Assembly (NCBI RefSeq): GCF_041886205.1
Contig: NZ_CP169029.1
From: Escherichia coli
GTDB taxonomy: Bacteria > Pseudomonadota > Gammaproteobacteria > Enterobacterales > Enterobacteriaceae
Reading direction: 5' to 3' (one strand)
DNA length: 64,000 nt
In this document: positions 1 to 20,833 of the stretch, one piece after another
How positions within the stretch are numbered: the stretch's first letter is position 1
Layout of the letters: every line of letters begins with the position of its first letter
The notes under the pieces: model-generated
What the model was told of the DNA's origin: nothing
What the model saw: only the letters and a program-made list of their open reading frames with translations
Databases searched by the model: none
Translations under genes and position numbers: made by a program

Positions 1-651
1 GCTCAAGATATCGGTAAACTGCATTCATCGAGGAAAGTCTCGCCAGATTGGTATTCCAAGTTACCAATCCCTTGGAACAAAACTGTTACTTGGATCGATA
101 GTTCGAGCCCTAATGAAGCAGGTGCAGAAGAACATAAGGGTAATGGTCGTTACTATAATCAACGAGAAGTCCGGCTACTGCTAGAGGCTTTGCAGTCATT
201 GTCGAGTGATGGCTGCATTGCACAGCTTGAGCAAACTATTACCACAGAACAGCCATATCCTATTGGTATAATCACAATGTATCGTCAGCAAAAAGAGGAA
301 ATTGACAATGCTATCAGTCGGGCTGAATGGGCTGCATCGTTACGTGGTTTGATCAAGATCGATACCGTTGATTCATATCAGGGCCATGAAAACAAGATAA
401 TTATCCTCAGTCTGGTTCGCGATAATCCCAACAAACTACAAGGTTTCCTGCGCGACGCGCCGCGAATAAACGTTGCTATTTCGCGAGCTCAAGAAAGGTT
501 ATTGATTCTGGGAGCAAGGCGTATGTGGTCAAAGACCAATAATGATTCAGCACTTGGAAACGTTCATGAATTTATTAGTAAACAGGTTGCAGTAGATGAA
601 CCCAACTACCAAATCCTGTGTGGTCAAAGTCTGCTTGGAGATAACAACTAA
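1..651 (+). CDS. SF1 (Upf1/DNA2-like) helicase, C-terminal part only; 5' end lies upstream of the window
   Basis: Frame 1 is open from position 1 to the stop at 649-651. Translation carries helicase C-terminal motifs (DTVDSYQGHE, INVAISRAQERLLILG) resembling the C-terminal helicase core. Confidence 0.6.
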   Translation, partial: AQDIGKLHSSRKVSPDWYSKLPIPWNKTVTWIDSSSPNEAGAEEHKGNGRYYNQREVRLLLEALQSLSSDGCIAQLEQTITTEQPYPIGIITMYRQQKEEIDNAISRAEWAASLRGLIKIDTVDSYQGHENKIIILSLVRDNPNKLQGFLRDAPRINVAISRAQERLLILGARRMWSKTNNDSALGNVHEFISKQVAVDEPNYQILCGQSLLGDNN

Positions 652-2198
652 TGTCAGAACCACGTCTGGGTAATCTGATTACCGTTTTACTACCTGCGCG
701 TAGTTACAAGATCAACTGCGCTTTGACCACTGAAAAACTGATGCCTGGAATTGAACAGTTTGCATGTCGCTTGCTGCTGATTTTTGATCAACTCTATCCC
801 AGCGAGTTACAGAATTACTTTGGTCTAACTGATCGTGAGCGAGAGGTATTGCTTGATGGGTTGCTGGCTAACAGACTGATCAACATTAATCCTGATGGGC
901 ATATTGAGGCTAGCTCATTCCTACGTAAGCATGCAGCTAATAATGGTGGGAAGCCAAGTTTAGTTAAATATCAAGAATGTACGGAGGAAGTTGCATTCGA
1001 TCTACTAACTCTTTCGATATGTAAACCGCAACCAAATCGTCGTTTTACTTCTGGACTGCCAGAGCTATTGCCGCGGCATCAGATCGGGGGAGATGCTGCT
1101 GCGGTAACAGAGGCTTTTAGTTCCCAGTTTAGGCACCATCTTTTGCTCAGCCGCAACAGCGAGTATGAGCGTCAACGGACTAAATTATATAAGATAATGG
1201 GCTGTAGTTCGCATGAGATGGTGCAGCTCCCAATAGAGATAGAGGTTAGCTACGGTGTTTCTGCTGGGAGCATTGAGCCGCAGAAATTTACTCGTTCCTA
1301 TGAATATTTAGGTAACACCCGGCTGCCGCTTTCAAACGAGCTGGAAGCTCATATCGCAGATTTTTTGGGAGAACATAAACTAGATGAATTCGGTATCGAC
1401 TGTGAAGATTTCTGTAAACTAGCAAATGATAAAGTGTTGTTACAATTTGCTAATGGTTATAAGTTCAACTATTCCGGCTGGATAGAGGCTCGTGAACAAC
1501 GTAAAACTGGCTACGGTACTTCATTGACTACCGGCATGTTAGGGGCTGTTTATTTGCCGCACAATTCTAAGCTGTTCATTAGTATGTTGCATAATGCATT
1601 ACGTGATTATATAGGTAAAACAGCTCCAAAAGCGCTGTGGTATAGCAGTAAAGTACCACTGTGGGGAGCTAATGGTAGTCAACTTTCGCGTTTTACTCGC
1701 GCTCTAGGCGATATACTTGGCAATTATGCCGATGATAAGATTGCTCGCATTTCGCTTTTACACTCAAGTGCAGATGAAGGTGAAAAACGTCAAGAGCGTA
1801 AGCGGCACTTAGGTCGTTTTCCTACCGGTATTGGCCTTACTTCAGAGGCTAAATTTGATCGTTTGGAGATCCTCTTAATTCCTGATGTGATTGCTTTGGT
1901 GCAATACCACGGTCAACCTAATTCTGATAGTGCATTAACCCTGCCGATTGGTTATATAACTGTTGAGCCAGAGCGTTTAGAATTACTTAAAAAACTAATG
2001 ATTAAGCGAACTGAAGGGGCTGTTGCAACCATTACTTGGTCTGAATCAAAATTTGAAAATTTAGCTTCGCTATTACCTGTTGAGTTTCTGATTAAACTGA
2101 ATAAGAAAAGCGGTGAAGATGTGGATGCTGCAATAAAAAAAATGCAGATCTATAACCGTGCTGAAACCGCACGGGCAATTTTATCGCTACGCAAGTAG
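651..2198 (+). CDS. Hypothetical 515-aa protein, translationally coupled to the upstream helicase
   Basis: ATG at 651 overlaps the helicase stop (TAATG); GGAG 13 nt upstream. Long uninterrupted ORF with no catalytic motif I can recognise. Confidence 0.6.
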   Translation: MSEPRLGNLITVLLPARSYKINCALTTEKLMPGIEQFACRLLLIFDQLYPSELQNYFGLTDREREVLLDGLLANRLININPDGHIEASSFLRKHAANNGGKPSLVKYQECTEEVAFDLLTLSICKPQPNRRFTSGLPELLPRHQIGGDAAAVTEAFSSQFRHHLLLSRNSEYERQRTKLYKIMGCSSHEMVQLPIEIEVSYGVSAGSIEPQKFTRSYEYLGNTRLPLSNELEAHIADFLGEHKLDEFGIDCEDFCKLANDKVLLQFANGYKFNYSGWIEAREQRKTGYGTSLTTGMLGAVYLPHNSKLFISMLHNALRDYIGKTAPKALWYSSKVPLWGANGSQLSRFTRALGDILGNYADDKIARISLLHSSADEGEKRQERKRHLGRFPTGIGLTSEAKFDRLEILLIPDVIALVQYHGQPNSDSALTLPIGYITVEPERLELLKKLMIKRTEGAVATITWSESKFENLASLLPVEFLIKLNKKSGEDVDAAIKKMQIYNRAETARAILSLRK

Positions 2199-2412
2199 CA
2201 TTTATATTGCAACGAATAAATTTTTCTAGGTTGCTATGAACTAGCTAAAGGGCAACAAATAGATAAACGGCGTTATTCATGTCAAATGAGATAATGTTAA
2301 ATTGATAGGGATTTATACCCCGCCGGCCATTTTGAATGGTCGGAGTTGTTATAAACGTTAAACCGCCCCGGAAATCCTGGAGACTAAACTCCCTGAGAAA
2401 GAGGTAAACAGG

Positions 2413-2739
2413 ATGACTAAAAATACACGTTTTTCCCCCGAAGTCCGTCAACGGGCAGTTCGTATGGTTCTGGAAAGTCAGGGCGAATATGACTCACAAT
2501 GGACAGCAATTTGTTCTATTGCCCCTAAGATTGGCTGTACACCGGAGACTCTGCACGTCTGGGTACTCCAGCATGAGCAGGATATTGGGGGCGGTGATGG
2601 TGGTTTCACCACCACTGAACGTCAGCGTCTGAAAGAGCTGGAACGTGAAAATCGTGAACTGAGCCGCAGTAACGATATCCTTCGCCAGGCTTCCACTTAT
2701 TTTGCGAAGGCGGAGTTCGACCGCCCCTGGAAAAAATAA
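2413..2739 (+). CDS. IS3-family transposase OrfA (IS629 OrfA-like, 108 aa)
   Basis: Translation MTKNTRFSPEVRQRAVRMVLESQGEYDSQW...LKELERENRELSRSNDILRQAS matches IS629/IS1203 OrfA as I recall it. Confidence 0.75.
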   Translation: MTKNTRFSPEVRQRAVRMVLESQGEYDSQWTAICSIAPKIGCTPETLHVWVLQHEQDIGGGDGGFTTTERQRLKELERENRELSRSNDILRQASTYFAKAEFDRPWKK

Positions 2740-3118
2740 TGCCACTGCTGGATAAGTCGCGTGAGCAGTACGGGATCGGACCGGTATGCAGTGAACTGCA
2801 TATTGCCCCGTCAACGTATTACCACTGTCAGCAACAGCGACATCATCCTGATAAACGCAATGCCCGTGCGCAGCGTGATGACTGGCTGAAGAAAAAGATA
2901 CCGTGCGTATACGATGTGCGTAAAGTCTGGCGTCAGTTGTTTCGGGAAGGTATCAGAGTGGCCAGATGCACTGTGGCACGTCTCATGGCGGTTATGGGGC
3001 TTGTCGGTGTTCTCTGGGGTAAAAGGTCCGCACTACCGTCAGCCGGAAAGCCGTTGCCGTAGACGACCGCGTAAACCGCCAGTTCGGGGCAAAGTCGTGG
3101 GTGGCTGATTTTACTTAC
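2739..3118 (+). pseudogene. IS3-family transposase OrfB, truncated and frameshifted
   Basis: Begins MPLLDKSREQYGIGPVCSELHIAPSTYYHCQQQRHHPDK like IS629 OrfB, but is short of a few residues versus the recalled sequence, stops after 107 aa, and continues in another frame (RQFGAKSWVADFTY) before homology ends. Confidence 0.6.
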
Positions 3119-3690
3119 GGTGTGCCCGGAGTTCAGGGTGAGCACGGATGCTGAAATGAACCATGAGTCTGTCTGGAATATGGAACAGATAACTCATGAC
3201 GAGAAGCCCAACAATCCCACCGGGTGTGACTGTGGTGAACCTGAGCGACTGTGACCTGCGGCATTCCCTAAGGATGATGTAACCCGCTGACAACGGGGAT
3301 TGAGGCGAGATCACTAAGCCGAGATGATCCTCAAGGTTGAGTGCTGAAAGGCTGAAGAACATGAACCCGTTAATCCGCCTCTGTGGGCTGAAAACGTCAC
3401 CACGGCCTACATGATCTGACAGGTCGTGCAGAAGTAACTGTCTGCGACACGTATGCGCGGGTCAGTCAAAGGTGTTCTGACATGTATGCAAAACACCGGG
3501 ACAGCAACGCCTATCACGCTCACGTTGCTGACTTCTGTCAACTTGCGGCAAGCAAGGACAAAGAGTGCGACGGGCAGCCTCCTCAGTATGTATGAGTTCA
3601 GACAGGTGAACTGGGGAAGGTCAGCGACGGATGTTAAGGAGGCAGTAAGCGTCAACGGAGCACCGTATTGACGCTTATTTATTGGTGAGA
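3119..3690 (+). mobile_element. Candidate group II intron 5' fragment (domain I-like structured RNA) inserted in the IS OrfB remnant; no intron-encoded protein ORF
   Basis: Starts GTGTGCCCGGAG...GGGTGAGCACGG immediately after the IS OrfB FTY codons, resembling the GUGYG...GGGUG start of bacterial group II introns. GC-rich, non-coding in all frames. Group II introns are known to target IS elements in E. coli. Confidence 0.25.
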
Positions 3691-3698
3691 ACTACGTT

Positions 3699-3900
3699 TC
3701 ATGGCAGGAGTTCGTCAACACGGTTGGATAGTAATGCACGGCTCAGTTCGACACCCTGTCGGGCAAAGATTTCACTCTGACGATACAGTGGCAGGTGTTC
3801 GCAGTATTTTCCCGTTAACACGCGGGCAAGTAATCCGGGGCCGCGATACCACGCTCTATCGGGCAGGACGGCGCCAATGATAGCATTTATACAAGCAATT
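3699..3900 (-). pseudogene. IS66-family transposase (TnpC) internal fragment
   Basis: Minus-strand translation ...GLLARVLTGKYCEHLPLYRQSEIFARQGVELSR... matches the conserved HLPLYRQSxIxARQGV block of IS66 TnpC, then hits a stop. Far too short for an intact gene. Confidence 0.45.
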
Positions 3901-4227
3901 CTGGGAGCTTATAGATTGTGTGCAAAACTTTTGATAGCAGGAGGTTACAACAGTATTGATGAAAAAGATCATTCAAATCGATTTATATATTTTGTTAATG
4001 TTATCTGTTTTCAATCTAATAACCACGAATATAGCTAATTATAGGATGATTACTAGTTTTGCTACCCTATCAACCAAACGTTCACCGGACATTAGAAAAC
4101 ATGGAAATTTCTTGTTTTTAAATGCTTTTTACACCAATAGAAAAATTTACATTCCAAAATCATTAGTCTTTGCGTAATCAAAAGATGTAATGGTTTTTTT
4201 CCTTACTACTTCTAGATAATCCGCCCA

Positions 4228-4345
4228 CTACAGCAACATCAACTTACGCTCATCTAAATGCTCCGCCTTATGGATATAAGCTACCCGCACTGAATTACAT
4301 TCCATGCGGCTCATCAGACGTCCAGTTGCTTTACTGTCTTCAGGG
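4228..4345 (-). pseudogene. P4-type integrase 3'-terminal fragment (remnant of an older island)
   Basis: Minus-strand translation ...ATGRLMSRMECNSVRVAYIHKAEHLDERKLMLL* aligns with the C-terminus of the intact integrase at 11064..12326 (...AVERQMSHQERNGVRAAYIHKAEHLEERRLMLQ...). No upstream catalytic region. Confidence 0.5.
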
Positions 4346-4584
4346 GGATGCTCTTGTAATCCCAACCTCTCGTGCTTTCTGAGCATAACACATCCATGTT
4401 GCTGCGATTATCTCTTAAACCCGTCCTTACCATTTTTATTGATACGATAAGGAACCTTCATCATACATGATCGATTTTGTCGATCGATTCGATCGAATTT
4501 TCTCTTTTTACCCTGTCTTTTACATGGTTTTAAAATAAGCACCCCATTTATTGTTCGGGGAAAGTGATAGCAGAGGTAACTGAA

Positions 4585-5313
4585 ATGAAAAAGATTATTG
4601 CGGTTTCAGCACTTGCTGTGGCAGGCATGTTTTCAGCCCAGACCCTGGCTGATGAGAGCAAAACAGGCTTTTATATGACCGGTAAGGCGGGAACTTCCGT
4701 TTTATCTCTTTCCAACCAGCGTTTTGTCGAAGGTGAAGGAGAGTGGGCGGACAGATACAAAGGTGACGATGACCATGATACGGTATTCAGTGGCGGTATT
4801 GCGGCCGGTTATGATTTTTATCCGCAGTTCAGTATTCCGGTTCGTACAGAACTGGAGTTTTACGCTCGTGGAAATGCTGACACGAAATATAATCTTTATA
4901 AAGACGACTGGTCGCGTGGTGACCTGAAGAACGAGGTGTCAGTCAACACTCTGATGCTGAATGCGTACTATGACTTCCGGAATGACAGCTCATTCACACC
5001 ATGGGTATCTGCAGGGATTGGCTACGCCAGAATTCACCAGAAAACAACCGGTATCAGTACCTGGGATTACGGGTATGGATACAGTGGTCGTGAATCGTTG
5101 TCACGTTCAGGCTCTGCTGACAACTTCGCATGGAGCCTTGGCGCGGGTGTCCGCTATGACGTCACCCCGGATATCGCTCTGGACCTCAGCTATCGCTATC
5201 TTGATGCGGGTGACAGCAGTGTGAGTTACAAGGGCGAGTGGGGCGATAAATATAAATCAGAGGTTGATGTTAAAAGTCATGACATCCTGCTTGGTGTGAC
5301 TTATAACTTCTGA
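4585..5313 (+). CDS. Outer-membrane beta-barrel protein (OmpA-like/opacity-type family), 242 aa
   Basis: Signal peptide MKKIIAVSALAVAGMFSAQTLA, alternating aromatic/hydrophilic beta-strand pattern, C-terminal ...LLGVTYNF ending in Phe. The ORF-track start at 4564 is probably an upstream extension. Confidence 0.7.
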   Translation: MKKIIAVSALAVAGMFSAQTLADESKTGFYMTGKAGTSVLSLSNQRFVEGEGEWADRYKGDDDHDTVFSGGIAAGYDFYPQFSIPVRTELEFYARGNADTKYNLYKDDWSRGDLKNEVSVNTLMLNAYYDFRNDSSFTPWVSAGIGYARIHQKTTGISTWDYGYGYSGRESLSRSGSADNFAWSLGAGVRYDVTPDIALDLSYRYLDAGDSSVSYKGEWGDKYKSEVDVKSHDILLGVTYNF

Positions 5314-5488: not shown

Positions 5489-6988
5489 ATGAGTATCATA
5501 AAACTATTTTTTCCGGACAATACATCCCGAATTTTATTGTTTTTATTCTTTTTTGTTGTTTCTGTCATAACCACAATTGCATGCGGATACACTGAGAAGA
5601 ATACCACCGGGAATGTGTTGCTGCTGTTCTTTCTTCTGCTTCTTGCACACAGAAATACCCTCACATCCATTACAGCGCTGTTATTTCTGTTCTGTTGTGC
5701 ACTGTATGCGCCTGCCGGTATGACGTACGGTAAAATCAACAACAGTTTTATTGTCGCGTTGTTGCAGACCACGGCTGATGAGGCAGCGGAGTTTACCGGG
5801 ATGATTCCTGTTTATCATTTTCTGGTCAGTGCCGCGATTCTGGTATTCATGGTGATTTTCTGGCGAACACACCACCGCGGTCACCGTAACTGGCTGGCAC
5901 TGCTGCTATTCGTATTATGCTCTGTAAACAGCTGGCCGTTGCGGATGGTTAAAGGAACCGTTGTGGGGACAACTGACACATTGCGTGAAATGCAGCGTTA
6001 TAAACAACTGAGTCAGCACGGGGCTGACAGCTGGAAAATCCTGCCGGGTGTACCGTTGTATGACACGATTGTTATTGTTACTGGTGAGAGTGTGCGCAGG
6101 GATTATATGTCGGTATATGGCTATCCCGTGCCAACCACACCGTGGCTGAATACTGCTCCCGGTTTATTTATTGACGGCTATACATCGGCAGCAGCCAGTA
6201 CCGTACCTTCCCTGAGCCGGACACTGATTTATGACTATGAGCAGAACCCTGATTCCGGCAACAACGTGGTGGCGCTGGCAGCAAAATCAGGATACAGCAC
6301 ATGGTGGATATCCAATCAGGGAAAACTGGGAGAGCATGACACACGCATCTCTGTTATTGCTTCTGATGCGGAGCATACCGTTTTCCTCAAGAAAGGCAGC
6401 TTCGCTTCCCGTAAAACGGATGATATGTTGTTGTTACAGGAAACAGAACGTGCGCTGGCGGATACATCCTCTCCGAAGGTGATTTTCCTGCACATGATTG
6501 GCTCTCATCCGAATCCGTGTGACCGACTTAACTCCTGGCCGAATCATTACCTGGAGCAGTATCCCCGAAAGATTGCCTGTTACCTCGCCAGCATCAGTAA
6601 ACTGGATAACTTTCTCGGTCAGCTTGATGGTATCCTTCGCCGGCATTCCCGTCATTTCGCCATGCTTTACTTTTCTGACCATGGACTGTCGGTCAGCGAC
6701 AGCGCTAATCCTGTTCATCATGATGGTCATGTGCAGGGAGGCTACAGCGTTCCCCTGATTATTACCGCCAGTGACATCACGTCTCATCAGTCCGTCAGCA
6801 GAAAAATCAGTGCCCGTCATTTCGCAGGTATTTTTCAGTGGCTGACCGGCATTCGTACTGAAAATATACCGCCATTCAATCCGCTGACAGACGAAGATAA
6901 TGAACCCGTTATGGTTTTTAACGGGGAGAGGAATGTACCGGCAGACAGTCTGAAACCGCAGCCTCTGATTCTTCCGGACAGAAGATAA
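5489..6988 (+). CDS. Sulfatase-family phosphoethanolamine transferase-like inner-membrane protein (EptA/YhbX-like), 499 aa
   Basis: N-terminal multi-span hydrophobic region followed by a soluble domain with sulfatase-like signatures (IVTGESVRRDY, HMIGSHPNPCDRL). Exact start codon uncertain. Confidence 0.65.
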   Translation: MSIIKLFFPDNTSRILLFLFFFVVSVITTIACGYTEKNTTGNVLLLFFLLLLAHRNTLTSITALLFLFCCALYAPAGMTYGKINNSFIVALLQTTADEAAEFTGMIPVYHFLVSAAILVFMVIFWRTHHRGHRNWLALLLFVLCSVNSWPLRMVKGTVVGTTDTLREMQRYKQLSQHGADSWKILPGVPLYDTIVIVTGESVRRDYMSVYGYPVPTTPWLNTAPGLFIDGYTSAAASTVPSLSRTLIYDYEQNPDSGNNVVALAAKSGYSTWWISNQGKLGEHDTRISVIASDAEHTVFLKKGSFASRKTDDMLLLQETERALADTSSPKVIFLHMIGSHPNPCDRLNSWPNHYLEQYPRKIACYLASISKLDNFLGQLDGILRRHSRHFAMLYFSDHGLSVSDSANPVHHDGHVQGGYSVPLIITASDITSHQSVSRKISARHFAGIFQWLTGIRTENIPPFNPLTDEDNEPVMVFNGERNVPADSLKPQPLILPDRR

Positions 6989-11063: not shown

Positions 11064-12326
11064 CTATTTTAATGGATTGTTAATTTTTGCATATTCAAAC
11101 GGACTGATACCCTTCTCCCGGTTCGCATCCAGAAAATCGGCCCACCATTGCAACATCAGTCGCCGTTCTTCCAGATGTTCTGCTTTATGGATATACGCAG
11201 CACGTACACCATTACGCTCCTGATGGCTCATCTGACGTTCCACAGCATCGCGGGACCACAAACCTGATTCAATCAATGCACTGCACGCCATCGCCCGGAA
11301 TCCATGGCCACAGACATCCTGGGTTGTGTCATACCCCATCACCCTCAGGGCTTTATTTACAGTATTTTCACTGATTGGTTTACGCGGGTCATGTGCTCCC
11401 GTAAAGATCAGACCATTTTCACCAGCCCATGTCTGTAGTTCTGCCAGTATGGCTACAGCCTGTTTGCTGAGTGGCACAAGATGTGGTGTTCGCATCTTGG
11501 AGCCCCGGTGTGAGAATTTTACGCCAGGCAGAGGTTCGCGTTCGGCTGGAATAGTCCACATGGCATTGTCAATATCAATTTCAGACCAGCGGGCGTATCT
11601 GAGTTCACTGGAACGAATAAAAACCAGTAAATTCAGCATAACTGCCAGTCGGGTGACAGGCTGGCCTTTATAACCGTCAATACGCGACAGAAGTTCAGGC
11701 AGGCGTGAAAGATCCAGTGCAGGGCGATGCTGGCGTTTTACCGTGGTCAATGCACCAGCCATATCCAGAGCCGGGTTATATCTGATGATGCCAGACTGTA
11801 CGGCATAACGCATTACAGCAGATATTCTTTGCTGCAGACGACTGGCGATTTCATAAATTTGTTTAGCTTCTGCAGCACGAACAGGGATAAGCAGGTCCGG
11901 GGTACTGAGTGTTGTGATATCCCGGTTGCCGATAAAGGGGAAAACGTGTGTCTCGAGGCTTTTGAGTACTTTATCGCTGTGTGATTGTGCCCATTGTTTA
12001 TTACTGGCATGCCAGCGTCGTGCAATATGTTCAAAAGAGAGTTGTAAATCAGGGACTACTTTTTTAGCTCTTTTCAGTTCGCAAGGGTCAATCCCCTCCG
12101 AAATCAGTTTTCGGGCCTCATCCCGTTTTGTACGAGCTTCGGAGAGAGAAACTTCTGGATACACACCAAGTGCCAGAGTCTTCTCCTTACCCAGAATACG
12201 ATAACGGAGACGCCAGTAACGGGAACCATTAGGATGAACCAGTAGGAACATGCCAGCCCCGTCAGTGAGTTTATAAGCCTTGTCAGTGGGCTTTGCAGCC
12301 CGGATTTTTGCGTCAGTCAGTGCCAT
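11064..12326 (-). CDS. P4-type phage integrase (tyrosine recombinase), island integrase next to tRNA-Phe
   Basis: Translation from the internal Met: MALTDAKIRAAKPTDKAYKLTDGAGMFLLVHPNGSRYWRLRYR... (typical P4-family N-terminus); C-terminal catalytic region with HGFRAMA...YIHKAEHLEERR. The ORF-track start at 12389 is an upstream extension. Confidence 0.85.
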   Translation of the reverse strand: MALTDAKIRAAKPTDKAYKLTDGAGMFLLVHPNGSRYWRLRYRILGKEKTLALGVYPEVSLSEARTKRDEARKLISEGIDPCELKRAKKVVPDLQLSFEHIARRWHASNKQWAQSHSDKVLKSLETHVFPFIGNRDITTLSTPDLLIPVRAAEAKQIYEIASRLQQRISAVMRYAVQSGIIRYNPALDMAGALTTVKRQHRPALDLSRLPELLSRIDGYKGQPVTRLAVMLNLLVFIRSSELRYARWSEIDIDNAMWTIPAEREPLPGVKFSHRGSKMRTPHLVPLSKQAVAILAELQTWAGENGLIFTGAHDPRKPISENTVNKALRVMGYDTTQDVCGHGFRAMACSALIESGLWSRDAVERQMSHQERNGVRAAYIHKAEHLEERRLMLQWWADFLDANREKGISPFEYAKINNPLK

Positions 12327-12486
12327 AGTATAGCCTTCTGAATGCGTTAAAGAGGGTACAAATTCTGTCGAACTGGGGTATGCCCGCAATTATACCCACA
12401 CAATGGGGTTGATGTGGGGGGAATCTGGTTGAGTTCGGTAGAATTGATTTGTAGGTAGAACGCTTAAATTGTGGCGTTCTGAAACG

Positions 12487-12513
12487 AAAAACGGACCTCC
12501 GTGGAGGTCCGTT
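12487..12513 (-). terminator. Rho-independent terminator of tRNA-Phe
   Basis: Hairpin acggacctcc/ggaggtccgt directly 3' of the tRNA on the minus strand, followed by a TTTTTCGTTT run. Confidence 0.5.
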
Positions 12514-12523
12514 GATATGAATT

Positions 12524-12599
12524 TGGTGCCCGGACTCGGAATCGAACCAAGGACACGGGGATTTTCAATCCCCTGCTCTACCGACTGAGCTATCCGGGC
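12524..12599 (-). tRNA. pheV: tRNA-Phe (pheV locus by synteny with yqgA-speC)
   Basis: Reverse complement reads GCCCGGATAGCTCAGTCGGTAGAGCAGGGGATTGAAAATCCCCGTGTCCTTGGTTCGATTCCGAGTCCGGGCACCA, the E. coli tRNA-Phe sequence including CCA. Confidence 0.95.
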
Positions 12600-12704
12600 A
12601 ACGGGGCGCATTAAACCTGATTCGCCTCGTCTCGTCAATCAAATTTCTTCAATTTACTGCAGACTGCACAATCTATCATCACTTTGCCGCTATTGCACGC
12701 ATTG

Positions 12705-13412
12705 TCAGGCAAACCAGGCGGTCCAGGCGGCGGAAATCGGCATTGCCAGAAGGAGTGCTGGAAGCATGTTGACCACCGGGAACATTTTAATGCCACAGAT
12801 GCGTAATCCGGTTGCCAGCAGCAATAAACCGCCTACGGCGCTGAAGTCTGCCATCATCGACGGTGTGGTCAGCGGTAATATCAGCGCGGCAGCCCACGCC
12901 AGCGTTAACTGGATGATCAGTAATGGTATACTAATTACCGACACCGCGATGCCCAACGAGCAGGCGAAGATCATTGCCGTAAAGAAATCAAGAAATGACT
13001 TGGCGATTAAAATACTCGGATCGCCGGTCATCCCTTCGTTCATCGCCCCGAAGATCCCGGTGCCGCTGGCGCAAAACAGGACAATAATCGCGACATAATT
13101 CTGAATAAAAGATTCATGCGCTGGCTTCTTACGTGAGTGACGAAACAGATTTTGTGCTTTGGTGACCGCGGTATTGACGCCTTTTTCCAGCAGACAAAAT
13201 TCGCCGATTAATGCTCCAAGTAAGGTTGCTAAAACCATCGCCGGAAGGTTGGCGCATTTCACCACCAGTAAAATACCAATCCCCAGCGATGCCAGACCAA
13301 AAATTGATGTCATGGAGACGCGGATACGTTCCGGTAAGCGTTGGCTAAGTAGTGCACCGAGCACGCCACCCAGTAATACTGCACTTGCGTTGATAAAAGG
13401 ACCGATGACCAC
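12705..13412 (-). CDS. yqgA: Inner membrane protein YqgA (DUF554)
   Basis: Translation [30 protein letters not shown]... matches YqgA. GTG start chosen to give 235 aa; the ORF-track ATG at 13433 is an alternative. Confidence 0.8.
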
Positions 13413-13810
13413 AAAAGTTCCCGTTAGCTGCATTGTCTGATTTTCTTATTATGACCGTTTGGTGCCGTCGATGGCTTGTTTGTTCGCAAAGTCCTGGCTT
13501 GCACGCTCTGATGAAAGGTGCCATGATTGCGCGAATTTTCTCCTCTCTGTACGGAGTTTGCCCGATGCATGCCACCTCCTTACATTCTCTCGCTTATCGC
13601 CGTTTCGCGCGAAACTCTTCTCTTTTTATGCTACTGCTCATGCGGTGAAGTTAACGCACGCTCACTGCAGGACAACAGTAAAATCAGAGCGTTTCTGCTT
13701 TTACTGATGTCTGGCGGTCGGAGCTGGTGACCAGTTTGACCCATATCTCATGGGGCAGGGTTTTCCACCTTGTCCGGTATTCTTACTTCCCCGAAACGGG
13801 TTTTGCGCTT

Positions 13811-15946
13811 ATGAAATCAATGAATATTGCCGCCAGTAGTGAACTGGTATCCCGACTTTCTTCACATCGCCGCGTGGTGGCGTTGGGAGATACTGATTTT
13901 ACGGACGTCGCGGCAGTCGTCATTACCGCTGCGGATAGTCGCAGTGGCATTCTTACGTTGCTTAAGCGCACCGGTTTTCATCTACCGGTGTTTTTGTATT
14001 CCGAACATGCTGTTGAATTACCTGCGGGCGTTACGGCGGTAATCAATGGCAACGAGCAGCAGTGGCTGGAGCTGGAATCCGCAGCCTGTCAGTATGAAGA
14101 GAATTTACTGCCACCGTTTTATGACACGCTGACGCAGTACGTTGAGATGGGCAACAGCACCTTTGCTTGCCCTGGACATCAACATGGTGCGTTTTTTAAA
14201 AAGCATCCTGCCGGACGCCATTTTTACGATTTCTTTGGTGAGAACGTCTTTCGCGCCGATATGTGTAACGCTGACGTAAAATTGGGCGATCTGCTTATTC
14301 ATGAAGGATCGGCGAAAGATGCGCAGAAATTCGCAGCCAAAGTCTTTCATGCCGATAAAACCTATTTTGTGCTGAACGGCACATCGGCAGCGAATAAAGT
14401 GGTGACGAATGCGCTGTTAACGCGTGGCGATCTGGTGCTCTTCGACCGTAACAACCATAAGTCGAATCATCACGGCGCGCTGATTCAGGCGGGGGCGACG
14501 CCGGTCTATCTGGAAGCTTCACGCAACCCGTTTGGTTTCATTGGCGGTATTGATGCGCACTGTTTTAATGAAGAGTATCTGCGCCAGCAAATTCGCGACG
14601 TTGCGCCAGAAAAAGCTGAGTTGCCGCGCCCGTTTCGCCTGGCGATTATTCAGCTGGGAACCTATGACGGCACTGTCTATAACGCCCGTCAGGTGATCGA
14701 TACCGTTGGGCATCTGTGTGATTACATTCTGTTTGATTCCGCGTGGGTCGGTTATGAACAATTTATCCCGATGATGGCGGATAGCTCGCCGCTGCTGTTA
14801 GAACTTAACGAAAACGATCCGGGGATCTTTGTGACTCAGTCGGTGCACAAACAGCAGGCGGGATTCTCACAGACGTCGCAGATCCATAAAAAAGATAACC
14901 ATATCCGCGGACAGGCGCGTTTTTGCCCGCATAAGCGGTTGAATAACGCCTTTATGCTCCATGCTTCTACCAGCCCTTTCTATCCGCTGTTTGCTGCACT
15001 GGATGTTAACGCTAAAATTCATGAAGGAGAGAGTGGGCGTCGGCTGTGGGCTGAGTGCGTTGAGTTGGGTATTGAGTCGCGCAAGGCTATTCTTGCGCGC
15101 TGTAAGCTGTTCCGCCCGTTTATCCCGCCCGTTGTTGATGGCAAATTGTGGCAGGATTATCCGACATCTGTGTTAGCCAGCGACCGCCGTTTTTTCAGTT
15201 TTGAGCCGGGGGCGAAGTGGCACGGCTTTGAAGGATATGCCGCGGATCAGTATTTTGTTGATCCGTGCAAGCTGTTACTCACTACACCAGGTATCAATGC
15301 CGAAACTGGCGAATATAGCGACTTTGGCGTTCCGGCGACGATTCTGGCGCACTATCTGCGTGAGAACGGCATTGTGCCGGAGAAGTGCGATCTCAACTCC
15401 ATTCTGTTCTTATTAACTCCGGCGGAAAGCCACGAGAAGCTGGCACAACTGGTAGCGATGTTGGCGCAGTTTGAACAGCATATTGAGGATGACTCGCCGC
15501 TGGCTGAGGTGTTGCCGAGCGTTTATAACAAGTATCCGGTGCGCTATCGCGACTACACCCTGCGCCAGTTGTGTCAGGAGATGCACGATCTGTATGTCAG
15601 TTTCGACGTCAAAGACCTACAAAAAGCGATGTTCCGCCAGCAGAGTTTCCCGTCAGTGGTGATGAACCCCCAGGATGCGCATAGCGCTTATATTCGCGGT
15701 GACGTGGAGTTGGTGCGGATTCGTGATGCCGAAGGGCGAATTGCGGCAGAAGGGGCGTTGCCTTATCCACCTGGCGTGCTTTGCGTGGTACCCGGGGAAG
15801 TCTGGGGTGGGGCGGTTCAACGTTATTTCCTTGCACTGGAAGAAGGGGTGAATTTGTTGCCGGGATTTTCGCCGGAGCTGCAAGGTGTTTATAGCGAAAC
15901 CGATGCGGATGGCGTGAAGCGGTTGTACGGTTATGTGTTGAAGTAA
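13811..15946 (+). CDS. speC: Ornithine decarboxylase, constitutive
   Basis: MKSMNIAASSELVSRLSSHRRVVALGDTDF..., 711 aa, matches SpeC. Track ORF has an in-frame N-terminal extension. Confidence 0.93.
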   Translation: MKSMNIAASSELVSRLSSHRRVVALGDTDFTDVAAVVITAADSRSGILTLLKRTGFHLPVFLYSEHAVELPAGVTAVINGNEQQWLELESAACQYEENLLPPFYDTLTQYVEMGNSTFACPGHQHGAFFKKHPAGRHFYDFFGENVFRADMCNADVKLGDLLIHEGSAKDAQKFAAKVFHADKTYFVLNGTSAANKVVTNALLTRGDLVLFDRNNHKSNHHGALIQAGATPVYLEASRNPFGFIGGIDAHCFNEEYLRQQIRDVAPEKAELPRPFRLAIIQLGTYDGTVYNARQVIDTVGHLCDYILFDSAWVGYEQFIPMMADSSPLLLELNENDPGIFVTQSVHKQQAGFSQTSQIHKKDNHIRGQARFCPHKRLNNAFMLHASTSPFYPLFAALDVNAKIHEGESGRRLWAECVELGIESRKAILARCKLFRPFIPPVVDGKLWQDYPTSVLASDRRFFSFEPGAKWHGFEGYAADQYFVDPCKLLLTTPGINAETGEYSDFGVPATILAHYLRENGIVPEKCDLNSILFLLTPAESHEKLAQLVAMLAQFEQHIEDDSPLAEVLPSVYNKYPVRYRDYTLRQLCQEMHDLYVSFDVKDLQKAMFRQQSFPSVVMNPQDAHSAYIRGDVELVRIRDAEGRIAAEGALPYPPGVLCVVPGEVWGGAVQRYFLALEEGVNLLPGFSPELQGVYSETDADGVKRLYGYVLK

Positions 15947-15950
15947 GAAT

Positions 15951-15990
15951 AAAAAAAACGGGTCACCTTCTGGCGACCCGTTTTTCTTTG
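15951..15990. terminator. Bidirectional rho-independent terminator between convergent speC and nupG
   Basis: A-run, hairpin cgggtcacc/ggcgacccg, T-run. Confidence 0.6.
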
Positions 15991-15995
15991 CGTAA

Positions 15996-17252
15996 TTAGT
16001 GGCTAACCGTCTGTGTGCCTGTCGGGACACGAACGTGTTTATATTTGAACATCGCCATGAACGCGAAGGCCAGAACCACGGAGTAACCAGCGAAAATCAA
16101 CCATACGGTCTGCCAGTCGGTAATGCCGTTTTGGGTGTACATCTCAACAACTTTACCGCTCACGATGCCGCCGAGGATACAGCCGAAGCCGTTAGTCATC
16201 ATCAGGAACATCCCTTGTGCACTGGCGCGAATTGCCGGGCTAACTTCTTTTTCGACAAACACCGAACCAGAGATGTTGAAGAAGTCGAATGCGCAACCGT
16301 AAACGATCATCGACAGTACCAGCAGTACAGTACCGAACGGAGTCGGGTCGCCGTAAGCAAACAGCGCAAAACGCAGGATCCACGCCACAATACTGATCAT
16401 CATTACGTTCTTAATACCGTAGCGGCTTAAGAAGAACGGGATGGTCAGAATGAACAGGGTTTCAGAGATCTGCGAAATCGACATGATGATTGACGCATGC
16501 TGCACAATAAAGCTGCTGGCAAACATCGGATCTTTGTCGAAGCTGTGCAGGAAGGTATTACCGAACATGTTGGTAATCTGCAGTTCCGCGCCCAGCAGCA
16601 TTGAGAAGATAAAGAAGATTGCCATACGCTTGTTTTTAAACAGCGCGAATGCATCGAGGCCCAGCAGGGTTGTCCAGCTCTGATTCGCTTGCTGTTTAGC
16701 AACCGGAATATGCGGCAGAGTCAGGGTAAACAGAACCAGAATGGCGGAAAGTGCTGCGCCAATATACAGCTGCATGTGGCTTAATTCGAAGCCAGACAGG
16801 CTCACCACCCACATTGCCATGATAAAGCCGATGGTGCCCCAGATACGGATTGGCGGGAAGTCAGTAACGATATCCATCCCGGCATTTTGCAGGCGATAGT
16901 AAGAGATGGTGTTGATTAACCCAAGCGTTGGCATATAAGCAAACGAGTTAATCAATATCACAAGGAACATCGCCTCCGGTGTCGTGACCTGTGCCGCCAT
17001 GAACAGCGTGATAGCGCCAATGGTGTGGCAAATGGCATATACCCATTTCGCACTTAACCATTTGTCGGCCACAATCCCCAGCAGCGCAGGCATAAAGACC
17101 GCTGCGATACCCAGTGAGCTATAAACTGCGCCAATAGAAGCACCGTCAAACTTCAGGGTAACAAACATATAGGAGCCGAGGGTCGTCAGCCAACTTCCCC
17201 ACAGACAGAACTGCAGAAAAGAGAGGATTTTCAGCTGCAGCTTAAGATTCAT
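15996..17252 (-). CDS. nupG: Nucleoside:H+ symporter NupG
   Basis: MNLKLQLKILSFLQFCLWGSWLTTLG..., 418 aa, MFS transporter; RBS GAGGAA upstream. Confidence 0.93.
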   Translation of the reverse strand: MNLKLQLKILSFLQFCLWGSWLTTLGSYMFVTLKFDGASIGAVYSSLGIAAVFMPALLGIVADKWLSAKWVYAICHTIGAITLFMAAQVTTPEAMFLVILINSFAYMPTLGLINTISYYRLQNAGMDIVTDFPPIRIWGTIGFIMAMWVVSLSGFELSHMQLYIGAALSAILVLFTLTLPHIPVAKQQANQSWTTLLGLDAFALFKNKRMAIFFIFSMLLGAELQITNMFGNTFLHSFDKDPMFASSFIVQHASIIMSISQISETLFILTIPFFLSRYGIKNVMMISIVAWILRFALFAYGDPTPFGTVLLVLSMIVYGCAFDFFNISGSVFVEKEVSPAIRASAQGMFLMMTNGFGCILGGIVSGKVVEMYTQNGITDWQTVWLIFAGYSVVLAFAFMAMFKYKHVRVPTGTQTVSH

Positions 17253-17453
17253 GTTAATTTCCTCACATCGTGATGCGGATGAGTGTTTGAAAAAGCACAT
17301 TTGACCGTGCGAGATGATGGGATTCTATCAACTTCGCGGACTGGTTTTTTGTTACCTGTGGCAAATAATTGCAAACATTCCCAATTTGCAAAACGAAATT
17401 GTGATGTGGATAACATTTTTGCCCCTGAGCATCGTCAGGGGCGGTTAATGGAA

Positions 17454-18560
<1,107 letters not shown>

Positions 18561-18597
18561 TTATGCAAGTTGCCGGAGGCGTGCTCCGGCACTGTTT

Positions 18598-18876
<279 letters not shown>

Positions 18877-18900
18877 TCATCCTCTTTATCGACTCACGCG

Positions 18901-19953
18901 CTAAACCGGCGCGCCAGTGCGTAACTGCTGTAACAAACGCTCCACGGGAGCCGCCAGGCCAACTGACGGCGGTTGCGCTAAGTTATACCAGAGCGCATTG
19001 CCTTCATCCATGCAGCCGGTGAATGACGACACGGGAAGCCACATAGGCACAATATCTAAGTGGAAATGGCTGAAGGTATGCCGAAACGCGGTCAGTTGCG
19101 TCAGGTTATCGGCAGCAATCTGCCGTTGCGCCAGCCACTGCCGCAAACTTTCTTCGTCGGCAAACTGCGGGAAACAGTATAAACCGCCCCACAATCCGCT
19201 CGGCGGACGCTGCGCCAGCAATACTTCATCTTCGTGCTGTAATAGCAAAAAGTAGCCGGTGCGCTCCGGCAGCGTCTGTTTCGGTTTTTTGCCCGGATAA
19301 AGCGCCCAGCTATTGTTGGCGGCGGCAATACATCCGTTTTGTAGCGGACAGAGCGAACATTTCGGTTTCGAGCGCGTACAAATCATCGCACCCAAATCCA
19401 TCATCGCCTGATTAAACCGTTCCACGCCAACCGCGGGCGTCACCTGCTCGCTCAAACTCCATAATTTATTCTCGACCTCTTTTTTCCCTGGCCAGCCGCT
19501 TACAGCATAGCAGCGCGCCAGCACCCGTTTGACGTTACCGTCGAGAATCGGAAAGTGCTTACCCAGAGAAAGCGAGAGAATCGCGCCTGCGGTGGAACGC
19601 CCGACGCCCGGCAGTGCTGCAACTTCCTCAAAGGTTTCCGGGAATTTACCGCCGTGTAAGGTCGCCACTTGTTGTGCCGCTTTATGCAGATTGCGCGCGC
19701 GGGCGTAATAGCCAAGCCCGGTCCACAAGTGGAGAACTTCGTCGAGCGGCGCATTGGCGAGATCGGTCACCGTCGGGAAGCGCGCCATAAAGCGTTCAAA
19801 ATAGGGGATAACGGTCGCAACCTGAGTTTGTTGCAACATCACTTCTGAGAGCCATACTTTGTAGGGCGTCTTGTCAATTTGCCAGGGCAGAGTTTTTCGC
19901 CCGTATTTATCGTACCAGTCCAGAACCTGGGCTGAAAATTGCGACGCTTGCAT
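18901..19953 (-). CDS. mutY: Adenine DNA glycosylase MutY
   Basis: [25 protein letters not shown]..., 350 aa, with 4Fe-4S cysteines near the C-terminus of the catalytic domain. Confidence 0.93.
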
Positions 19954-20113
19954 GGTCACCGAATTCACTGTTGTTGGGGGCAAGATTGCAGCACAGCGAC
20001 GGCAGGGTGTAAACCGGAACTTTCCGCAGCCACGGCCTTATCATGCTTGCATCCGGCAACTAACTTTGGATAATGCCCGTTTTCAGAACACTTTCACAAG
20101 CGACTAAACCTTT

Positions 20114-20833
20114 ATGAAAAACGACGTCATTTCACCGGAATTTGATGAAAACGGCCGCCCACTGCGCCGTATCCGTAGTTTTGTGCGCCGCCAGGGGCGA
20201 CTGACCAAAGGCCAGGAACATGCGCTGGAAAACTACTGGCCGGTGATGGGCGTTGAGTTCAGCGAAGATATGCTGGATTTCCCCGCGCTTTTTGGCCGTG
20301 AAGCGCCGGTGACGCTTGAGATTGGTTTTGGCATGGGGGCGTCGCTGGTGGCAATGGCTAAAGATCGCCCTGAGCAGGACTTCCTCGGCATTGAAGTGCA
20401 TTCACCGGGCGTTGGTGCGTGCCTGGCTTCTGCGCATGAAGAAGGTTTAAGCAACCTGCGCGTGATGTGTCACGATGCGGTTGAAGTGCTGCATAAAATG
20501 ATTCCTGACAATTCATTGCGCATGGTGCAGCTCTTTTTCCCTGACCCGTGGCACAAAGCGCGCCATAATAAACGCCGTATCGTTCAGGTGCCGTTTGCCG
20601 AACTGGTAAAAAGCAAACTGCAGCTGGGGGGCGTATTCCATATGGCGACCGACTGGGAACCTTATGCGGAACATATGCTTGAAGTGATGTCTTCTATTGA
20701 CGGTTATAAAAACCTGTCAGAGAGCAATGATTACGTACCGCGTCCGGCATCACGTCCGGTGACGAAATTTGAACAACGTGGTCATCGTCTTGGTCACGGA
20801 GTATGGGACTTAATGTTCGAGAGGGTGAAATAA
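20114..20833 (+). CDS. trmB: tRNA (guanine-N7)-methyltransferase
   Basis: [34 protein letters not shown]..., 239 aa. Confidence 0.93.

Follow-up and report, generated by a model that had tools for sequence, protein, structure and literature searches.

The window analysed here is a stretch of 64,000 nucleotides from Escherichia coli (GCF_041886205.1, contig NZ_CP169029.1), and its first 2198 positions are, with a probability that we put at about 0.9, the 3' part of an mkoA-mkoB operon of the antiphage system Mokosh type I. The complete account, in which a Mokosh type I operon resembling the one verified in E. coli SEC470 sits on a tRNA-Phe island, is held nearly as firmly. An earlier note on this DNA, made from the sequence alone, had suggested that a truncated helicase gene and its downstream partner form one antiphage operon matching no named system. 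The operon was borne out, by the PADLOC models for Mokosh type I and by a tight linkage of the two genes in distant homologues; the lack of a named match was not, since both full proteins match those models.

On the plus strand, frame 1 is open from base 1 until the TAA at 649-651, which gives 216 codons, and the fragment contains the motifs KIDTVDSYQGHENKII and RINVAISRAQERLLILG cited in the earlier note. It makes up the RecA2 part (AAA_12 region) at the C-terminus of a Upf1-like superfamily 1 (SF1) helicase. The junction between the genes reads AACTAATGTCA, where the ATG of mkoB (651-653) shares base 651 with the TAA of mkoA, so the overlap of stop and start (TAATG) is as the earlier note had described it. 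A GGAG can be read directly 10 nt 5' of this ATG, and the second open reading frame (ORF) runs over 651-2198 and encodes the expected 515 aa. We infer that mkoA and mkoB are translationally coupled. In RefSeq the two products are labelled 'AAA domain-containing protein' and 'hypothetical protein', respectively. The features of this region are:

1-651, plus strand: 3' end of mkoA (last 216 codons and the stop), the gene being cut by the window edge
634-653, plus strand: mkoA-mkoB junction, with GGAG at 634-637, a 10-nt spacer and TAATG, by direct reading
651-2198, plus strand: mkoB, 515 aa (WP_001294844.1), helix-turn-helix (HTH) type without the HKD motif, matching PADLOC PDLC03923
738-950, plus strand: predicted winged HTH (about residues 30-100 of MkoB), which follows a long beta-hairpin at residues 5-29
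1518-2045, plus strand: predicted phospholipase D (PLD)-fold domain of MkoB without HKD, about residues 290-465
2156-2199, plus strand: two weak hairpins resembling terminators where mkoB ends, from a consensus scan only and of low weight

In the promoter and terminator scan near the operon end, hairpin counts were not above those of shuffled sequence.

The missing upstream sequence was taken from E. coli ZYB39, which is 100% identical over window positions 1-4140. Positions 1-651 of the window correspond, at 100% identity, to 20001-20651 of the ZYB39 locus (L001), where the full mkoA occupies 15693-20651 (a 4959-bp coding sequence, WP_000877065.1, 1652 aa) and the gene for WP_001294844.1 comes directly after it. 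With the full gene recovered, the upstream fragment proved to be the C-terminus of a Upf1-like SF1 helicase, as the earlier note had supposed. MkoA matches PADLOC PDLC03921 with 1303.6 bits (residues 2-1642 against 1607 model positions) and MkoB matches PDLC03923 with an E-value of 1.1e-61 (residues 8-456 against 454 model positions), whereas the other MkoB model, PDLC03922, gave a weak N-terminal match only.

Mokosh systems combine a Upf1-like COG1112 helicase with a PLD nuclease (Millman et al., 10.1101/2022.05.11.491447). In type I these are split between two proteins, MkoA, a helicase with a serine/threonine kinase domain, and MkoB, and mutations in the ATP site or the PLD site abolish defence (10.1101/2022.05.11.491447). 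Two type I systems from E. coli are verified: that of the enterotoxigenic E. coli (ETEC) strain H10407 (SG202), with an MkoA of 1215 aa and an MkoB of 602 aa labelled 'HTH-PLD' (10.1101/2022.05.11.491447, Tables S2 and S8), and that of SEC470 (SG199), with a 'Kinase-Helicase' MkoA of 1652 aa and an 'HTH' MkoB of 478 aa (10.1101/2022.05.11.491447). Phage resistance was thus tested for homologues of the present pair, in SEC470 and H10407 (10.1101/2022.05.11.491447) and also in E. coli CFE331.

The window pair resembles the SEC470 system most. The verified SEC470 proteins match the same two models, PDLC03921 and PDLC03923, with 530 and 415 bits (first 399 aa). Gene order and MkoA length are also shared, as are the N-terminal NERD/kinase-like/helicase layout of MkoA and an MkoB that is of HTH type and has no PLD motif. 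Both alignments are collinear, at only 23% identity in MkoB (E 5e-15) and 28% in the N-terminal part of MkoA (E 1e-41), the latter compared over the first 399 aa of SEC470. Given the same model pair and this low collinear identity, the window pair is judged, from sequence comparison, to belong to the SEC470-like subtype of Mokosh type I as a diverged member. With H10407 it shares a two-gene operon, a Upf1-like helicase following a kinase-like region (residues 460-1215 of H10407 MkoA hold the helicase; Millman et al., 10.1101/2022.05.11.491447), and a homologous N-terminal beta-hairpin and winged helix in MkoB (hhalign E 4e-5). Differently from the window MkoA, H10407 MkoA has no NERD match in its first 399 aa, the portion compared. 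Its MkoB, which matches PDLC03922, carries two canonical HKD motifs and Pfam PLDc_2, whereas the window MkoB has one PLD-fold domain and no HKD.

Among the features expected of Mokosh type I, MkoA has the Upf1-like SF1 helicase with an intact ATP site and also the serine/threonine kinase domain, the predicted activity of which is doubtful. The gene matching the MkoB model is adjacent to mkoA and co-oriented with it, and the adjacency is found in three other genera. The HxK(x)4D PLD nuclease that the text of Millman et al. gives as the definition of MkoB is absent, the protein being PLD-like in fold only. The locus is nevertheless filed as Mokosh type I because the verified SEC470 MkoB also lacks HKD and is labelled 'HTH'; the HKD feature defines the H10407 subtype, not the Mokosh type I family as catalogued. 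The locus is an ordinary scan match of a known kind, to which the standard tool PADLOC gives a name, and in 2022 another operon of this subtype, homologous to it, was shown to defend E. coli against phages.

A megablast search with window positions 1-2250 matched 69 of 5426 complete E. coli genomes, all in chromosomes and with the full query covered, 67 of them at no less than 99% identity. mkoA was found in 71 complete E. coli genomes (69 of the 71 at 80% coverage or more) and the mkoB-containing query in 69, which makes mkoAB an accessory cassette present in 1.3% of E. coli genomes, always chromosomal and in islands. KMi025 (NZ_CP091652) and strain 2779 (NZ_CP103521) hold rare decayed copies, one with an IS1A inserted in mkoA-mkoB, the other with mkoA truncated to 64% and annotated as 'NERD domain-containing protein kinase family protein'.

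Homologues of MkoB with 36-96% identity form 41 clusters in a 90%-identity database, all unnamed, and a profile search of 1.84 billion representatives retrieved 386 clusters at 50% identity. Directly upstream of 3 divergent MkoB homologues, on the same strand, lies a gene encoding a NERD/kinase/AAA_11/AAA_12 protein of 1615-1653 aa; the two genes overlap by 8 nt in P. putida and by 1 nt in Photobacterium and are separated by 11 nt in Acinetobacter. Since this tight linkage recurs in distant homologues, the pairing is not due to chance, and the synteny across genera of the gamma-proteobacteria excludes a fortuitous juxtaposition of ORFs. Co-occurrence of the two genes, which the earlier note had proposed to check, thus holds in 69 of the 5426 E. 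coli genomes and in 3 divergent genera. The three homologous loci adjoin integrases, an MmeI-type restriction-modification gene (Acinetobacter) or a TerB/BrxC-like/DEAD-helicase cluster (Photobacterium). In Photobacterium (L005/L006, 11059-16885), the genes directly 3' of mkoAB encode a TerB_N/TerB/TerB_C protein, a BrxC/BrxD-like ATPase and a ResIII/DEAD helicase, and this three-gene cluster is probably another defence system.

The full-length MkoA is ordered as a NERD PD-(D/E)xK nuclease, a first and a second kinase-like domain, a middle region and a Upf1-like SF1 helicase. Pfam places NERD at residues 14-122, Pkinase at 317-418 (E 1.5e-4), a weaker Pkinase at 595-657 and AAA_11 from 1062; orthologues also match AAA_12, and the match to TIGR00376 (IGHMBP2 family) has an E-value of 1.2e-43. 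The kinase region also has matches to PD-T4-6, Stk2 and PglW kinase models. Conservation was followed in an alignment of 75 homologues with identities down to 30%. The NERD residues D48, D55, E61 and K63 are kept in all 75, and so are Walker A K1090 and D1348/E1349 of the helicase, with the GPPGTGKT (Walker A) and DEAG strings invariant; Q1420 and R1598 are invariant too.

The kinase-like domains are less well preserved. Kinase 1 keeps the H-R-D...N catalytic loop, while the DFG position is never Asp (G in 67 of the 75), and because this Asp is lacking in all 75 homologues the domain looks like a pseudokinase family-wide. In kinase 2, HGD-x4-N and LID-x-LD (N650, D665 and D668) are found in 66 of the 75. 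The 9 sequences of the window clade, all at least 67% identical to the query and among them some from E. coli, Shewanella, Pantoea, Vibrio and Photobacterium, have K650, G665 and E668 in place of N/D/D. These changes (N650K, D665G, D668E) distinguish the window clade, in a comparison that for SEC470 covers the first 399 aa only. As both metal-binding positions are replaced, kinase 2 activity has probably been lost in this E. coli/Vibrionaceae clade. A comparable arrangement, described as 'NERD-REase, inactive kinase, active kinase' (REase, restriction endonuclease), is known in PglW and DndF (PMC12839542), and kinase 1 of MkoA, without the DFG Asp, fits the inactive-kinase slot of that module (PMC12839542).

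In MkoB, regular-expression searches over the 515 aa found no HxK(x)4D and no Walker A, which confirms the claim of the earlier note that the partner has neither an HKD motif nor a P-loop. There is no Pfam match even at E<=10 and no NCBIfam match, and Pfam searches on 123 family members gave no PLD and only sporadic winged-helix-like matches (HemN_C, AlkZ-like). A sequence-profile search of the PDB with the MkoB alignment returned nothing at E<=1. When the family was compared by hhalign with the HTH-PLD MkoB family, only residues 4-126, the beta-hairpin and winged helix, aligned (E 4e-5, probability 69%). Against the single H10407 MkoB sequence nothing was obtained, and local alignments of the isolated C-terminal domain with each PLD domain of HTH-PLD MkoB stayed at a probability of 3% or less.

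A confident AlphaFold2 model built from 41 homologues (mean predicted local distance difference test score, pLDDT, 86.3; predicted template modelling score, pTM, 0.77) runs from a beta-hairpin through a winged helix and a middle domain to a PLD-fold domain without HKD. Its structural matches are F13, the TrmB sugar-binding domain, NucT, bacterial PLDs, FAM83A/B, Zucchini/PLD6 and Nuc, and further BfiI, PPK, SauUSI, NgoAVII, PLD4, Tdp1 and MITD1. From these matches, residues ~290-465 of the model take a PLD fold, and the closest ones include the non-catalytic PLD folds of the TrmB sugar domain, FAM83 and MITD1. Foldseek against AFDB50 returned uncharacterised family members only and added no function.

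The catalytic motif of the PLD superfamily, HxK(x)4D(x)nGSxN, is lacking in MkoB. The HxK(x)4D string occurs in 1 of the 123 family members and is not conserved, whereas two HKD motifs are present in 42 of 43 HTH-PLD MkoB proteins. The family, with a mean identity of 19%, conserves instead G298, N305 (113/123), W330, W338, E406 (122/123), H420 (101/123), P432, G434 (123/123) and T/S437 (120/123). This pattern suggests that the PLD-fold domain is constrained, as either a binding pocket or another kind of active site. Its architecture recalls TrmB, an archaeal sugar-responsive regulator (PDB 3qph, 2f5t), in which a winged helix is likewise followed by a PLD-fold ligand domain without catalytic function. 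Sequence homology between the two is not detectable; MkoB has an extra N-terminal beta-hairpin and middle domain, and its genomic partner is a helicase whereas that of TrmB is a set of sugar-metabolism genes.

Some relatives of MkoB have a different composition. A distant one of 997 aa (P0088; cf. AFDB A0A7C9G4N5) has the MkoB core at 8-491, followed by dsrm domains at 668-731 and 930-994, a hint that recognition of double-stranded RNA (dsRNA) can be joined to the MkoB module. In Rhodanobacter, an MkoB-like protein of 817 aa (AFDB A0A2W5JZK8) is annotated with the C-terminal domain of DNA2/NAM7 helicases; either the MkoA C-terminus and MkoB are naturally fused in this protein, or the gene model is an artefact over an overlapping stop and start. 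A 651-aa relative with a C-terminal extension (P0074) gave no Pfam match.

We propose that MkoA and MkoB would form a complex in which the helicase loads on phage-specific nucleic acid (RNA, RNA:DNA or single-stranded DNA intermediates) and translocates with ATP. In the SEC470-like subtype the cutting would be performed by the invariant NERD site of MkoA, and in the H10407 subtype by the two HKD sites of MkoB. MkoB of the present kind would bind nucleic acid and gate MkoA as an adaptor or sensor, the winged helix binding and the HKD-less PLD-fold domain sensing or adapting. Kinase 1 would be a pseudokinase throughout the family, with kinase 2 probably inactive in the E. coli/Vibrionaceae clade. 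This division of labour, read from residue conservation, is tentative, and we place it somewhat below an even chance. Of the two verified systems, the one whose MkoB has no HKD does have NERD, and in the one with HKD no NERD was detected (first 399 aa). With such a nuclease site conserved on the NERD domain of MkoA, and a winged helix plus an HKD-less PLD fold in MkoB, it is doubtful that the partner, described in the earlier note as effector-sized, is the effector.

As for the trigger, RNA or RNA:DNA intermediates were proposed (Millman et al., 10.1101/2022.05.11.491447). This idea agrees with the two dsRNA-binding domains of the distant MkoB relative, which hint that the MkoB module reads RNA structure. 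Set against it is the Mokosh type I system of E. coli CFE331, which phages escape through glucosylation of their DNA and through the Alt ADP-ribosyltransferase. In the literature we found no study dedicated to how Mokosh type I works; it is included in one anti-defence screen, and in a recent survey the type I system resisted purification.

Mokosh type I is described in the literature as a 'helicase plus PLD nuclease', and the analogy with the piRNA pair MOV10L1 (helicase) and Zucchini/PLD6 (nuclease) rests on that. Zucchini has an active HKD, which the window MkoB lacks, and MkoA, unlike MOV10L1, carries NERD and kinase-like domains. The 386 clusters at 50% identity represent a large, widespread branch of MkoB without the PLD active site, in which the helicase protein keeps an invariant NERD site and, in the window clade, has also lost kinase metal-binding residues. 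It could be that the SEC470-like branch, and especially its E. coli/Vibrionaceae clade, is mechanistically distinct from a helicase with a PLD nuclease, with the odds leaning against it. In that case cleavage may have moved to the helicase-fused NERD, both kinase domains may be scaffold pseudokinases, and the PLD domain of MkoB may have become a sensor or adaptor like that of TrmB, without catalysis, or possibly an E/H-based enzyme of a new kind. What we predict beyond the catalogue is that MkoB retains a remnant of PLD at the level of the fold, that the NERD site is invariant and that kinase 2 residues are lost in this clade. The 'PLD nuclease' annotation should not be carried to mkoB genes of this branch, and the locus offers concrete mutational handles on which module kills.

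Three other explanations were weighed. The first keeps Mokosh type I and makes MkoB the true effector, its HKD-less PLD fold being a non-canonical nuclease or phosphodiesterase (E406/H420/N305/T437) and the NERD a sensor or a backup. The conservation of E406, H420, N305, G434 and T/S437 at a mean identity of 19% exceeds what a pure scaffold would need, and in the H10407 subtype the PLD active site of MkoB is needed for defence (10.1101/2022.05.11.491447). We nevertheless consider it unlikely, given the missing HKD, the absence of Pfam PLD in 123 members and of any profile-level PLD homology, the non-catalytic proteins among the closest folds (TrmB sugar domain, FAM83, MITD1) and the complete conservation of the NERD catalytic tetrad in MkoA.

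A still less probable explanation takes MkoB as a MarR/TrmB-type regulator of the operon, so that defence would reside wholly in MkoA as a single-protein system with its own repressor. The overlapping or nearly abutting genes suggest stoichiometric co-production, which is unusual for a repressor, and in the related HTH-PLD MkoB, which is an enzyme, defence depends on the active site (10.1101/2022.05.11.491447). One relative has two dsRNA-binding domains in place of regulator features, and another appears in AFDB fused to a helicase C-terminus.

That the pair is not Mokosh, being a stray part of another NERD-kinase system (PglW of BREX type 2, MAD6 of MADS, DndF) or a housekeeping or conjugative helicase, is hardly credible: the N-terminal ~480 residues of MkoA do match PglW (77-78 bits; NF033442, 78 bits against a cut-off of 990) and MAD6 (NF047741, 131 bits against 460), but these scores are far under the curated cut-offs and concern the N-terminus only, PglZ, PglX, BrxC and MADS genes are all missing next to the pair in four loci, mkoAB has no relaxase or transfer genes nearby, and a gene restricted to islands in 1.3% of E. 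coli genomes is not a housekeeping one. For BREX type 2 in particular, neither PglZ nor PglX was found among the neighbours in ZYB39, strain 222, P. putida, Acinetobacter and Photobacterium. PglW, MAD6 and DndF do share with MkoA the combination of NERD REase, pseudokinase and kinase (PMC12839542); they differ in having other C-terminal domains and in working with PglZ/PglX or methylation machinery, whereas MkoA has a Upf1-like helicase and MkoB.

The Mokosh type I operon lies on a horizontally acquired tRNA-Phe island, in agreement with the setting inferred in the earlier note. GC content is 43% over the two mko genes and ~50% in the core flank, a P4-type integrase adjoins the tRNA-Phe, and yqgA/speC/nupG beyond the integrase place the island at the pheV site. 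Further features of the island are:

2413-4400: degraded IS3-family insertion element, with an IS629/IS1203-like OrfA and a frameshifted OrfB, followed by IS66 and integrase fragments
4564-5313, plus strand: gene for an Adr/OmpX-like beta-barrel outer-membrane protein
5489-6988, plus strand: gene for a CptA/EptA-like phosphoethanolamine transferase, 499 aa
7097-10612, minus strand: MkoC, Mokosh type II, 1171 aa, helicase with a C-terminal HKD PLD (PADLOC, 1681.9 bits)
11064-12389: P4-type integrase, adjoining the tRNA-Phe
12524-12599, minus strand: tRNA-Phe

Two Mokosh systems, of types I and II, are therefore 5 kb apart in one island. The first 73 nt of the MkoC gene differ at one base from the verified system of E. 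coli 5-366-08_S1_C1. MkoC shares with MkoA the Upf1-like SF1 helicase and the defence-island site, and MkoA matches the MkoC model in the helicase C-terminus (E 3.8e-30). It differs in being a single protein with a C-terminal HKD PLD and in having no NERD, no kinase and no winged-HTH partner. The defence or mobile island expected for such systems is thus found here, with the integrase, the tRNA-Phe, the type II system 5 kb off and, in ZYB39, a CBASS operon upstream; the mkoAB island is dense in defence genes.

The cassette is found in more than one place. In ZYB39 the identical island segment adjoins a tRNA-Phe beside dicD/dsbD/cutA and so occupies the pheU site (L001 33023-42250, compared with window 11064-17300). 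Strain 222 (L007) has mkoAB in another island, near a TIR protein and type VI secretion system remnants, where the integrase fragment upstream and the IS3 remnant downstream are again present. Found at pheV, at pheU and in the island of strain 222, the mkoAB cassette is mobile and behaves as a unit.

The IS3-family element, the outer-membrane protein gene and the transferase gene sit between mkoAB and mkoC in the defence island. The degraded element is annotated with an AL1L pseudoknot in RefSeq. Window and ZYB39 sequences part at window position 4141, and the outer-membrane gene, intact in the window, is broken by an IS100 in ZYB39. The 499-aa transferase has weak, sub-threshold similarity only to MCR-type colistin-resistance enzymes. 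Within L001 7850-13994 of ZYB39, a stretch 5' of mkoA that the window does not cover, the CBASS operon consists of genes for an oligonucleotide cyclase, a hypothetical protein, an ATP-binding protein and a 3'-5' exonuclease. Beside it there is a divergent pair encoding a WYL-domain protein and a 505-aa protein similar to MTA/SAH nucleosidases (5'-methylthioadenosine/S-adenosylhomocysteine), and farther upstream a gene with a reverse-transcriptase domain.

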